Shown here piece after piece: positions 22,718 through 25,803 of a stretch of 64,000 bases of DNA. The stretch spans positions 1,380-65,379 of the forward strand of contig CAVVNJ010000009.1 in NCBI GenBank assembly GCA_963749595.1, read 5' to 3'. The translations under genes and the position numbers were made by a program. The stretch comes from Candidatus Woesebacteria bacterium. GTDB lineage: Bacteria > Patescibacteriota > Microgenomatia > UBA1400 > UBA1396. Position 1 is the first letter of the stretch. Each line of letters opens with the position of its first letter. The notes beneath the pieces are model-generated. The model was not told where the DNA came from. It did not search any database and saw only the letters and a program-made list of their open reading frames with translations.

Positions 22718-22792
22718 GCCACGGTACCGGAGTGGTCTAACGGCCAGGTCTGCAAAACCTCGGATTCGCGGGTTCAAATCCCGCCCGTGGCT
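22718..22792 (+). tRNA. tRNA-Cys (GCA)
   Basis: Acceptor GCCACGG/CCGTGGC, anticodon loop CTGCAAA, T arm GCGGG-TTCAAAT-CCCGC, discriminator U73. Confidence 0.85.
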
Positions 22793-22797
22793 CCCTA

Positions 22798-22826
22798 TTG
22801 ACAACCTATAAGTCTAGGCCTAAAAT
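22798..22826 (+). promoter_or_regulatory. sigma70-type promoter of the arg leader
   Basis: TTGACA, 17-nt spacer, TAAAAT. Confidence 0.65.
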
Positions 22827-22832
22827 GGCCGA

Positions 22833-23093
22833 ATCTTGAACAATTAAAGATTAAATCCGTAAACAGTTGGGAGTCGCGTCCCAACCACCTGAAGAAGGTG
22901 CGGAGCCCCGCAAAATCGGGGACGGGACAGCCCGTTACAGCTGAAACTCTTGTCACCCATTGGGAAACAGAGAGAGTCGCTAAGCTCTGACGAGCGATCG
23001 CCAGACGAAGCAGAGTGGTACCACGGCCCGTTGAAGCCGTCTCTGCGTGTTACGAAGCAAACCGCTTCGTATCGCGCAAAGACGGCTTTTTTT
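22833..23093 (+). promoter_or_regulatory. T-box-type riboswitch leader (tRNA-sensing antiterminator)
   Basis: Antiterminator: helix GCAGAG/CTCTGC, a 7-nt bulge UGGUACC and helix ACGG/CCGU. It is mutually exclusive with the terminator. AGAGAG and CCGUUA strings lie upstream. Confidence 0.7.
23036..23093 (+). terminator. T-box leader terminator
   Basis: GCCGTCT.TGCG ... CGCA.AGACGGC long stem with an inner hairpin, then TTTTTTT. Confidence 0.8.
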
Positions 23094-23132
23094 GTACCGC
23101 GATTCATCCGGAAAAGCCAGATAAAGGGAAAT

Positions 23133-24503
23133 ATGAAGACGAAGTCAAAAAAACTTTGGTCTAAAGGTAGTGCACCGCTCGAACTAAATGTCCAAATTCT
23201 GGCGTTTACTTCGTCGGATGATTTGGTTGTGGACCAAAAGCTGATCAAGTATGACGTTTATGGATCCCTGGCTCACTTGAAAATGCTGCGACAAGTCGGT
23301 CTAATTTCCGAAACTGAAGCGGGACAGCTTCACGATGGATTGACCGATATTCTGAGCCTTTGGGAAAAGGGAAAATATCTTCTTCAACCGGATGATGAGG
23401 ATATGCACACCGGGATCGAGGGCGATCTGTCGATTAAGTATCCGATTGCCGGCCAGAAGATCCATACCGGTCGGTCCAGGAATGACCAAGTGTTAGTTGA
23501 CCTCAGACTTTACACCAAGGAGCAGCTGATTAATCTGGCACAGGAGGTGGTGGTATTGGCCAAACTTTTCCAAGGTTTCGCCCAGCAATACCAAACAGTG
23601 CCAATGCCGGGTTATACCCATATGCAGCCAGCGATGCTGTCTTCCGTCGGTTTATGGGCGGGCCAATTTAGTGAAAGCCTGCTCGATGATTTAGAGCAGC
23701 TTAAAGCGGCTTATGATTTGAATGATCAATCGCCGCTTGGATCTGGCGCCGCTTATGGGGTATCCCTCCCAATCGACCGAAAAATAACTGCTGATTTATT
23801 AGGATTTTCAAAAGTTCAAATTAACGCGCTTTATTGTCAGAATTCCAAAGGGAAAATTGAATCTTCAATCCTGAATGCCTTAGTGCAGGTGATGCTGACA
23901 CTGGGGAGGTTGGCCCAGGATTTATTGCTATTTACGATGGCGGAGTTCTCTTTTTTCAAAGTTGATACTGCCCTGACTACCGGCAGCAGCATCATGCCGC
24001 AAAAGAAGAATTTAGACGTTCTCGAGTTGGTGCGAGCGAGGGTTAAAAAAATAATTTCAGCCTATCTTGAAGCGACCTCGATTGTGGCATCCCTGCCATC
24101 CGGTTACAACCGGGATACACAGGAGATCAAAAAAATATTAATCGAGTCGGTCGAAACCACTTTGGAATCGGTCAAAATTGTGCAGCTGGTAATTCTAGGG
24201 CTAGTTCCGAATGAAAGTCAGATGGCAAAAAATATCTCCAAGGATATGTTCGCCGCCCATTTTGCTTTTGAAATTATGAAAGAGAAAGGGCTGCCTTTCA
24301 GGGAAGCCTATCAGTTTGTCGGGCAAAACTTGGAGTCCATACCTCAATACGATCCAAAATTAGTTCTTACCCAAACAACCTCTCTAGGCGCCCCTGGCAA
24401 TCTTCAGCTCAAGGAATTGGGCAAAAAAATTAAGACGGGCCAAAAGTACTGGAAAAAGCAGTCTGAGAATCATCAAGTAGTCATCGAAAAATTAATTAAA
24501 TAA
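23133..24503 (+). CDS. argH: argininosuccinate lyase
   Basis: HTGRSRNDQV and GSSIMPQKKN signature. Start trimmed to MKTKSKK (RBS AAAGGGA), because the longer ORF covers the leader RNA. Confidence 0.9.
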   Translation: MKTKSKKLWSKGSAPLELNVQILAFTSSDDLVVDQKLIKYDVYGSLAHLKMLRQVGLISETEAGQLHDGLTDILSLWEKGKYLLQPDDEDMHTGIEGDLSIKYPIAGQKIHTGRSRNDQVLVDLRLYTKEQLINLAQEVVVLAKLFQGFAQQYQTVPMPGYTHMQPAMLSSVGLWAGQFSESLLDDLEQLKAAYDLNDQSPLGSGAAYGVSLPIDRKITADLLGFSKVQINALYCQNSKGKIESSILNALVQVMLTLGRLAQDLLLFTMAEFSFFKVDTALTTGSSIMPQKKNLDVLELVRARVKKIISAYLEATSIVASLPSGYNRDTQEIKKILIESVETTLESVKIVQLVILGLVPNESQMAKNISKDMFAAHFAFEIMKEKGLPFREAYQFVGQNLESIPQYDPKLVLTQTTSLGAPGNLQLKELGKKIKTGQKYWKKQSENHQVVIEKLIK

Positions 24504-24512
24504 AGGAATTTT

Positions 24513-25784
24513 ATGAAAACAACCACTAATTATCAGAAGGTAGCCTCTCATGAGGTCAAGGAATCGAAGATCGATCAAGTCGTTCTTTTGTACTCAGGAG
24601 GACTGGACACATCAGTAATGCTGAAATGGATCCAGGAATCTTACAAGGCCAAGGTTATCGCTCTGACGGTTGATATTGGGCAGCAGGCCGATGACCTACA
24701 GGCCATTAAAGAAAAGGCCATATCCTTGGGAGCGGTTCAAACCTACACCCTGGATTGTAAGGATGAGTTTGCCACCGAGTACTTGGCCAAGGGAATTAAA
24801 GCTAATGCTGCTTATCAAGGCTCTTACCACCTGAGTACACCGCTTGGCCGGCCGTTATTGGCAAAAAAAGCGGTCGAAATCGCCCATCAAACGGGAACCA
24901 AGGTAATCGCCCATGGAGCAACCGGCAAGGGTAATGATCAGGTCCGGATTGAATCATCAATTTTATGCCTGGACCCAACCTTAAAAATTATCGCCCCGGT
25001 GCGGGAGTGGGCGATGGGCCGGGATGAGGAGCTGGTTTACGCCGAAAAACATGGTATTCCCACCGCCCAAAAAAAGAAGGGGGTGGCCTACTCCTGGGAT
25101 GACAATATGTGGGGCGTTACCGGCGAAGGTGGGGAAATTGAAGATCCCAAGCTGGTGCCCCAGTACGAAAAAATTCTGCAGGTATGTAAAACCATCGAAG
25201 AAACCCCGGACGAACCAGAGCTGGTTTCCCTGGAATTTAAGAATGGCTTGCCAGTAGCGCTTAACCAAGCTCAACTTCCTTTGGCCAAATTAATCATTCA
25301 GCTCAACCGAATTGCCGCGAAACACGGGGTTGGGGTAACCACGCTGATCGAAGATCGGTTGGTGGGGTTAAAGGTCAGGGGTGTTTATGAGTCACCGGCA
25401 GCCGAGGTCATTATCACCGCGCATTTCAATCTGGAAAAACTGGTTTCCACGCAGACTGAAAATGAGATGAAAGCCATGATTGACCAGAAATGGGCTTATC
25501 TTTGCTATTGTGCCAAATGGTTCGAGCCGACCATGGATCATTTGAATGCCTATATTAATTCGGTGAATGCCAAGGTGACCGGCAAGGTGAAGGTTAAGTT
25601 GTTTAAGGGGCAGGCGACAGTAGTCTCCATCGAATCGCCATACTCACTTTTTGATGCCGACCTGGCCACCTTCAACAAAAACGGCAAATTCAACCAGAAT
25701 TCGAGCGCCGGATTCATTGAGATCTATTCTTTAGCGATGAAGACCGCCCATTTAGTTGCGGAACATCCACCCCTTGACGTTTAG
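24513..25784 (+). CDS. argG: argininosuccinate synthase
   Basis: LLYSGGLDTS ATP-binding motif; full-length family pattern. Confidence 0.9.
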   Translation: MKTTTNYQKVASHEVKESKIDQVVLLYSGGLDTSVMLKWIQESYKAKVIALTVDIGQQADDLQAIKEKAISLGAVQTYTLDCKDEFATEYLAKGIKANAAYQGSYHLSTPLGRPLLAKKAVEIAHQTGTKVIAHGATGKGNDQVRIESSILCLDPTLKIIAPVREWAMGRDEELVYAEKHGIPTAQKKKGVAYSWDDNMWGVTGEGGEIEDPKLVPQYEKILQVCKTIEETPDEPELVSLEFKNGLPVALNQAQLPLAKLIIQLNRIAAKHGVGVTTLIEDRLVGLKVRGVYESPAAEVIITAHFNLEKLVSTQTENEMKAMIDQKWAYLCYCAKWFEPTMDHLNAYINSVNAKVTGKVKVKLFKGQATVVSIESPYSLFDADLATFNKNGKFNQNSSAGFIEIYSLAMKTAHLVAEHPPLDV

Positions 25785-25803
25785 GTGTTAATTTGATTAT
25801 ATT
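25774..25803 (+). promoter_or_regulatory. groESL promoter
   Basis: TTGACG, 18-nt spacer, TATATT. Confidence 0.5.

Follow-up and report, generated by a model that had tools for sequence, protein, structure and literature searches.

A probable arginine T-box leader with a reduced Stem I upstream of argH-argG in a patescibacterial genome

The argH-argG locus and its leader

The window analysed here is a 64,000-nucleotide (nt) stretch of contig CAVVNJ010000009.1 from a Candidatus Woesebacteria assembly (GCA_963749595.1), and the subject of this report is its segment 22798-23132, which is flanked by a tRNA-Cys(GCA) gene (22718-22794) and argH. On the forward strand, positions 22798-23096 hold a promoter, a leader of ~300 nt, an antiterminator and an overlapping terminator, all upstream of argH (23133-24503, forward strand; TIGR00838, 312 bits) and argG (24513-25784, forward strand; NF001770, 503 bits). 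These two genes cover the final two steps of arginine synthesis, starting at citrulline, and groES-groEL lie downstream of argG. An earlier note on this DNA had proposed an attenuation leader that senses a tRNA-Arg with discriminator base A. The Rfam alignment, homologous T-boxes, helix covariation and a tRNA-Arg(GCG) with A73 in patescibacterial loci bear out this proposal, and the leader is very probably an Arg-specific T-box riboswitch that would control argH-argG by transcription attenuation.

The named relatives of the GroEL protein (68-73% identity) belong to Pacebacteria, Woesebacteria, Microgenomates, Saccharimonadia and the 'Patescibacteria group', and the ArgH relatives indicate the same host group; judged from these proteins, the host is a bacterium of the Candidate Phyla Radiation (CPR)/Patescibacteria. 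The leader is preceded by the sigma-70-type promoter that the earlier note had described (22798-22826, forward strand), with TTGACA at 22798-22803 and TAAAAT at 22821-22826, separated by 17 nt and matching the consensus at 11 of 12 positions. The promoter scan as a whole found three such sites against 2.2 expected from shuffles, i.e. no enrichment. Homologous leaders have promoter boxes at the same relative position (TTGACA-17-TAATAT in L174, TATAAT in L172; L-numbers are the labels of compared relatives' loci). Transcription would begin a few bases past TAAAAT, near 22833.

A search of the window with the Rfam T-box family RF00230 gave a match of 34.3 bits, in which the model is aligned over its entire length (positions 1-219) on 22850-23047. 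The E-value is 6.5e-4 when the whole window, both strands and all 4227 families are considered, and 7e-6 for a 701-nt region. Stem II, Stem IIA/B (including the F-box CCGUUA), Stem III and the T-box core all appear in this alignment. This search had been suggested as a check on the initial reading and its outcome was divided: the alignment is full-length, and its score lies below the RF00230 gathering score of 93 bits. The absence of a T-box at the Rfam gathering threshold was considered as a refutation and is overturned by the E-value mode together with the homologues, from which the threshold is evidently too high for this variant.

The five closest ArgH relatives (L161, L163, L164, L165 and L167; 55-57% identity) all have a T-box directly upstream of argH, with RF00230 scores of 101.3, 99.9, 90.3, 82.5 and 82.5 bits. 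These T-boxes are full-length, with a K-turn, a long Stem I, the specifier GAA-CGC-A and the core CAGAGUGGUACCACG; between GGAGC and the terminator, the window leader can be aligned with them. The same core, CAGAGUGGUACCACG, is identical in the window, in L161-L167 and in L172. Closer homologues of the leader itself came from a GroEL search, which yielded L172 and L174; ArgH scans of genomes and metagenomes gave 53% identity at most. L172 (GCA_964511175.1, 86% GroEL identity) carries the same leader type upstream of argG-X-argH-argE, and its leader is 78% identical to that of the window, column by column. As with the window arg genes, this L172 cluster is located directly upstream of groES. 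In L174 (86% GroEL identity), a window-type leader (L174:2330-2600) precedes a YqcI/YcgG-family gene (PF08892), and here too the same AAGUCGCG loop, the UGGUACC bulge and a terminator with U7 are observed; this suggests that the YqcI/YcgG-family gene is part of the arginine-responsive regulon. Two metagenome contigs (L132 and L083), with 47-49% ArgH identity, share the architecture, giving a set of five leaders that is compared below.

Antiterminator, Stem III and terminator

The antiterminator (23010-23046, forward strand) was read from the sequence, placed by script and found again in the Rfam alignment, in agreement with the fold given in the earlier note. Helix A1 (GCAGAG 23010-15 / CUCUGC 23041-46) and helix A2 (ACGG 23023-26 / CCGU 23037-40) are separated by the 7-nt T-box bulge UGGUACC (23016-22), the UGGU of which is complementary to a tRNA 3' end ACCA. 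A1 reads GCAAAG/CUUUGU in L174, a compensatory change relative to the window, and complementarity is also kept in other A1 variants upstream of arg genes.

The competing structure is an intrinsic terminator (23033-23096, forward strand) with a long stem at 23033-23089 and a U7 tract at 23087-23093. Folding gives -44.6 kcal/mol with z = -5.5, and none of 200 shuffles folds as well. Its 5' arm includes 23037-23046, which are the 3' strands of A2 and A1, and the two folds are therefore mutually exclusive, as had been recognized from the sequence at the outset. The terminators of L172 and L174 are in the same register, each followed by U7. In the window the terminator ends at 23096; the AAGGG ribosome-binding site lies ~28 nt further downstream, and the argH start codon (ATG at 23133) follows after 37 nt. 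The alternative fold is thus a hairpin with a U run that leaves the ribosome-binding site uncovered, with none of the Shine-Dalgarno sequestration that marks class II T-boxes, which indicates that the output would be transcriptional.

Upstream of A1, the 5' part of the discriminator (22978-23009, forward strand; covariation and motif match) consists of the purine string GCUAAG, Stem III and CGAA. Stem III (UCUGACGA-GCGA-UCGCCAGA, 22986-23005) is capped by a GNRA loop; its L172 counterpart has 9 bp and a GCAA loop. Together with its flanking purines it fits the RRRxG-Stem III-AA motif described for T-boxes (PMC7583486). A linker hairpin (22946-22977, forward strand), in which ACUCU...AGAGU encloses CCC-AUU-GGG, precedes this element and is supported by covariation: 95% of its cells are paired, and a C-G pair in the window and L172 is G-C in the L161 group. 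The string AGAGAG (22969 onward), which had been described together with the F-box as standing in a non-canonical order, is the 3' strand of this hairpin, ahead of the purine string and Stem III. That description was a misreading; the elements follow the canonical order.

A structure count over seven leaders, covering the linker hairpin, Stem III, A1 and A2, found 94% of cells paired, compared with 36-42% when the partner strands were slid. Compensatory changes occur in nine pairs, and none of 500 shuffles matches the observed values for cells paired, pairs or cells changed on both sides, or the covariation score. Covariation backs Stem III, with compensatory changes in all seven pairs tested, as well as the linker hairpin and helix A1.

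Proposed decoding module and probable specifier

In place of Stem I, the 5' part of the leader folds into a three-way junction (22856-22904, forward strand), in which helix P1 (UCCGU 22856-60 / GCGGA 22900-04) encloses hairpins P1a and P1b. For 22850-22906 this junction is both the minimum-free-energy (MFE) and the centroid fold (-20.0 kcal/mol, 54% of the ensemble, z = -3.2), and P1 covaries, reading UCCGU/GCGGA in the window and L172, ACCG/CGGU in L174, GGCGU/ACGCC in L132 and AGCGU/ACGCU in L083. The initial remark that Stem I was not obvious holds for the canonical form, but the stem is truncated rather than hard to see: RF00230 aligns 12 nt against 51 model positions of distal Stem I.

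Hairpin P1a (GUUGGG-AGUCGCGU-CCCAAC, 22866-22885, forward strand), identified by folding and comparison of leaders, carries CGC at 22875-22877 in its terminal loop, followed by the purine G22878. Its stem differs in all five three-way-junction leaders with a constant loop core, G-Y-CGC-G, and the core AGUCGCG is also found in hairpin loops of L024, L051, L087 and L092. An interaction between the P1a loop and the linker, by way of AGUCGC in the loop and again before Stem III, was considered and rejected, the second copy not being conserved in L174. Hairpin P1b (CACCU-GAAGA-AGGUG, 22886-22900, forward strand) is part of the MFE fold. The four other leaders have a hairpin at this place, each of unrelated sequence and loop (AAUGUG-ACAG-CACAUU in L172, AGC-CUAAA-GCU in L174, and other sequences in L132 and L083).

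The junction is followed by a reduced Stem II (CCCCG-CAAAAU-CGGGG, 22906-22921, forward strand; RF00230 alignment and covariation) of 5 bp with an A-rich loop. The stem varies (CCUCG/CGAGG, CUUGG/CCAAG, UUCUCG/CGAGAA, CAGG/CCUG) around a constant loop, YAAAA(A)U. Next comes the Stem IIA/B pseudoknot with its F-box (22922-22943, forward strand), assigned from the RF00230 alignment to CGg..cCGUUA and from loop-tail covariation. IIA is ACGGG-ACAG-CCCGU, the F-box CCGUUA lies at 22932-37, and IIB pairs CAG (22928-30) with CUG (22941-43). This IIB helix, of just 3 bp, was assigned by eye from its position; the script selected another pairing for the window. Across the leaders, the IIA loop and the tail change in step (CAGGC:GCUUG, AGUG:CACU, AGUA:UACU, GCAAA:UUUGC).

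P1, P1a, P1b, Stem II and IIA are fully paired in all five leaders with different helix sequences, and the only constant loop cores are G-Y-CGC-G in P1a and YAAAA(A)U in Stem II. The set (window, L172, L174, L132 and L083) is small and the helices of this per-sequence check were placed by hand. The check took the place of a column-by-column covariation analysis of the junction in a MAFFT alignment, which was dropped because differences in loop size shift the register.

We favor CGC at 22875-77 in the P1a loop as the probable specifier, with moderate confidence. It is the one invariant triplet in a single-stranded place, and a purine follows it. Every homologue has CGC and then G in its P1a loop, at a non-canonical position, and all leaders of this type that were found carry CGC. 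This triplet is also the specifier codon of the canonical T-boxes in the closest ArgH relatives, and it obeys the preference of T-box specifiers for C at the third position (PMC7583486, PMC7778990). In ~0.94 Mb of compared sequence there was no leader of the window type with another codon upstream of a non-arginine gene; the L174 copy, which is not upstream of arg genes, has the same CGC. Patescibacteria loci L054 and L057 encode a tRNA-Arg(GCG) with A73 and an encoded CCA, which fits both CGC and the UGGU of the bulge. An arginine anticodon GCG is unusual in bacteria, where ACG read as ICG is commoner. The two tRNA-Arg(GCG) genes (L054:2606-2771, L057:2462-2633) adjoin a tRNA-Cys(GCA) gene just upstream of argH, on the opposite strand.

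The specifier could instead occupy the canonical place, on the 3' side of an internal loop by the CGUA/UGCG basal helix (22891-22899), with P1a as a stub of distal Stem I; the triplet would then be AAG+G by position (Lys), GAA+G (Glu) or AGA+A (Arg). The Rfam alignment indeed puts GAAGAAGG (22891-22898) on the GAA-codon-A segment of the model, in the MAFFT alignment it falls opposite GAA-CGC-A of the canonical relatives, and L013, L040, L081 and L091 keep, by eye, an internal AGA or CGA loop above the K-turn with a short hairpin atop. Against this, GAAGAAGG forms the loop and 3' strand of P1b and pairs with CACCU in the MFE fold, and the window has no K-turn 5' strand of the kind that frames a canonical specifier loop. 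The homologues share no triplet there (..CACAUUCGCGGAGC in L172, ..AGCUCGGU in L174). Because the hairpins at this place, found in all five leaders, have unrelated sequences and loops, no codon is conserved at P1b, which points to CGC 22875-22877 as the likely specifier. AAG or GAA would moreover imply Lys or Glu control of arginine genes. We therefore regard a canonical-place specifier as unlikely, and GAAGAAGG was rejected in all its readings, including the AGA that the earlier note had tentatively favored. A further candidate, CCGAAGAAAGC, which looked like a conserved Arg specifier in relatives, is actually the S-turn strand of Stem II and pairs with GCAAGUAGG.

With CGC as the specifier, tRNA binding, the specifier nucleotides and the regulatory outcome can be inferred from the sequence as follows. 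The decoding module (22856-22943), comprising the three-way junction, the short Stem II and the IIA/B pseudoknot, would bind the anticodon of tRNA-Arg, and the codon on offer would most likely be CGC 22875-77 with G22878, pairing with anticodon GCG or ICG. If the tRNA were uncharged, its ACCA end would pair with UGGU (23016-19), the antiterminator would hold and argH-argG would be transcribed. With the tRNA charged or absent, the far more stable terminator (23033-23089 with U7) would form and transcription would end.

Decay of a formerly functional T-box, in which discriminator and terminator survive and the decoding module is a non-functional remnant, would yield a leader that terminates constitutively, leaks or answers to some other control. 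Such a history would account for the largely deleted Stem I and the lost K-turn, and the variable presence of the arg cassette (L173, L170 and L174 are without argHG at this site) fits weak selection. It is very unlikely, however. At least five leaders share the reduced architecture, and their genomes diverge to 47-49% ArgH identity (L132, L083). Every helix shows compensatory changes and two loops are invariant, which is the mark of purifying selection on the structure, and promoter, antiterminator and terminator are all intact. More improbable still is a composite sensor, whose 5' module would bind a protein, arginine or a related metabolite and only whose 3' part would sense the tRNA end: the 5' module of L087 does lead straight into a terminator and the argH start codon without a T-box bulge, and many relatives have a terminator-like hairpin and U run between the 5' module and the bulge, but the module keeps T-box hallmarks (IIA/B and the F-box, and in a sister subtype the K-turn and S-turn Stem II), its conserved loop triplet is an arginine codon that is also the specifier of the canonical relatives, and the window leader has no internal terminator.

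Several observations weigh against an Arg-specific T-box at this locus. The score of 34.3 bits falls well short of the 93-bit gathering score. The 64-kb window holds no tRNA-Arg gene, only that for tRNA-Cys; the anticodon and discriminator base considered above are those of L054 and L057. The leader has no GA/GA K-turn strands, neither an internal specifier loop nor a distal tRNA-elbow platform is present, and Stem II lacks the S-turn (loop E, GAA/AGUA). The S-turn Stem II is not universal in the family, since glycine T-boxes are also without Stem II (PMC7583486). The P1a loop varies between 6 and 8 nt across leaders. The sister subtype presents CGC in a loop of 4 nt whose closing pair covaries, an awkward setting for codon-anticodon pairing. 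In L087, the 5' module is followed by a terminator without UGGNACC, and the module may thus have another mode of action as well. Finally, transcriptional T-boxes generally require a long Stem I platform (PMC7583486), so that efficient co-transcriptional capture of the tRNA is not self-evident here.

Relation to known T-boxes and distribution

The leader has in common with canonical class I T-boxes (RF00230; Bacillus subtilis tyrS, L161 and L164) the UGGNACC bulge, helices A1 and A2, the competing terminator, Stem III with its purines, IIA/B with CCGUUA and a place upstream of amino-acid genes. In contrast to class I, it has no K-turn, no internal S-turn specifier loop and no elbow platform on distal Stem I; Stem II is cut to 5 bp around a CAAAAU loop, and a three-way junction of ~50 nt stands in for Stem I. 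The discriminator half and IIA/B carry the features that define a T-box. The leader is very probably a real Arg T-box, and its structural form is new within the known T-box family.

A reduced Stem I is known from the translational ileS T-boxes of Actinobacteria such as Mycobacterium tuberculosis and Nocardia farcinica, in which this stem is ultrashort (Sherwood et al. 2015 and structures from 2019, reviewed in PMC7583486). Both these class II T-boxes and the window leader have a cut-down Stem I without an elbow platform and a decoding module that depends on Stem II and IIA/B, and in both the codon would lie near the tip of a short hairpin. The specifier of actinobacterial ileS T-boxes is located in a terminal loop. 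In the sister subtype (L082 type), CGC-A covers nt 16-19 when numbering starts at the first base of the K-turn basal stem (C-stem); the N. farcinica ileS specifier, numbered the same way, includes C18 and A19 (PMC7583486). The class II ileS T-boxes sequester the ribosome-binding site, whereas the window leader has an intrinsic terminator with U7; they retain the K-turn and the Stem II S-turn, both of which are missing here; and they respond to Ile (AUC) in Actinobacteria, compared with, probably, Arg (CGC) in a patescibacterial host.

Control of arginine biosynthesis genes rather than argS by a tRNA-Arg T-box would not be unique to this locus, as a T-box-controlled arginine regulon was reportedly described in Clostridium difficile by Vitreschak and colleagues in 2008. 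Those leaders are said to have a canonical long Stem I and belong to Firmicutes; architecture and phylum are different here. A literature text search on Arg T-boxes of arginine biosynthesis genes found nothing, and a search for papers linking T-boxes with CPR found none.

Whether the window leader together with L172, L174, L132 and L083 (and, more loosely, L024, L051, L087 and L092) represents a third, transcriptional T-box decoding architecture we consider an evenly balanced question. In such an architecture, the anticodon would be caught by a loop-loop (kissing) contact of possibly five pairs (U:A37, CGC:GCG and G·U33), and the A-rich loop of Stem II would take the place of the S-turn purine string. 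According to the current rule, a long Stem I lets transcriptional T-boxes catch the tRNA fast enough, and only translational ones dispense with the Stem I platform (PMC7583486). A T-box that is conserved and covarying, coupled to a terminator and equipped with only a stub of Stem I forms a natural exception to this rule, and a third architecture, if true, would contradict the generalization that transcriptional T-boxes need the long platform. The decoding module of ~90 nt would also offer a minimal system for asking how little RNA can read an anticodon during transcription. For the bacterium, which is ultra-small and genome-reduced, the leader would mean that the steps from citrulline to arginine are turned on when tRNA-Arg is uncharged. 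The curated RF00230 threshold misses such elements (34 vs 93 bits), so that T-box regulons are under-counted in CPR/Patescibacteria, and probably elsewhere too.

Dozens of loci in Patescibacteria and Chloroflexota have a T-box core and a complementary A1 ahead of argH or argG; the bulge is UGGU or UGGC, and the specifiers are, by eye, Arg codons (CGC, CGA, AGA, AGG). Judged from these leader sequences, T-box control of the last arginine steps is common in Patescibacteria and Chloroflexota. The sister subtype (L001, L004, L020, L082 and others) has kept the K-turn and the S-turn Stem II; its Stem I consists of a hairpin of 6 bp with CGCA as its cap, for which Rfam aligns 17 nt to 86 model positions. 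Intermediate forms upstream of argH (L013, L040, L081 and L091) have a K-turn and an internal specifier loop (AGA or CGA) with a short distal Stem I hairpin, for example GGAA-GAAA-UUCC, and L091 scores 44 bits with RF00230. These forms suggest that Stem I became shorter on more than one occasion, or step by step.

At the level of the locus, promoter, T-box, argH and argG make up a cassette of ~3 kb (22795-25790) that is present or absent among close relatives. A near-identical gene order without argHG at this site is found in L173 (96% GroEL identity), L170 (87%) and L174 (86%), and in L173 (1260-1540) the groES promoter comes immediately after the tRNA-Cys gene. Elsewhere in the window, at 680-750 on the reverse strand, RF00023 gives a weak, heavily gapped tmRNA match (27.5 bits, below the gathering score of 47; E 3e-7) that compresses model positions 1-374 into 71 nt; ARAGORN reported no tmRNA in the window.

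Other relatives combine these elements differently. L087 (Ga0080064_1000919; 1290-1500) has the loop GUCGCGA, a hairpin with an AAAAAU loop, IIA/B and GCGUGUCGGUAACGGAGCGC, after which a GC hairpin with U6 and the argH ATG follow directly. In L001, L004, L020, L024, L031, L032, L050, L051, L082, L083 and L132, Stem III encloses a GC-rich hairpin followed by 5-7 U, such as UCCACC-GAAA-GGUGGA-UUUUUU in L020, between the 5' module and the T-box bulge. Eight further CPR relatives (L002, L003, L005, L008, L009, L011, L056 and L085) are without a T-box and have, ~200 nt upstream of argH, a short open reading frame with two to three consecutive Arg codons (for example MKILFISNSSSRRLFGEGSIFMA and MIILLSPLGFSIRRREKRESNMAKI), after which come a GC hairpin and a run of U; from its sequence, this arrangement looks like a leader-peptide attenuator for arginine.

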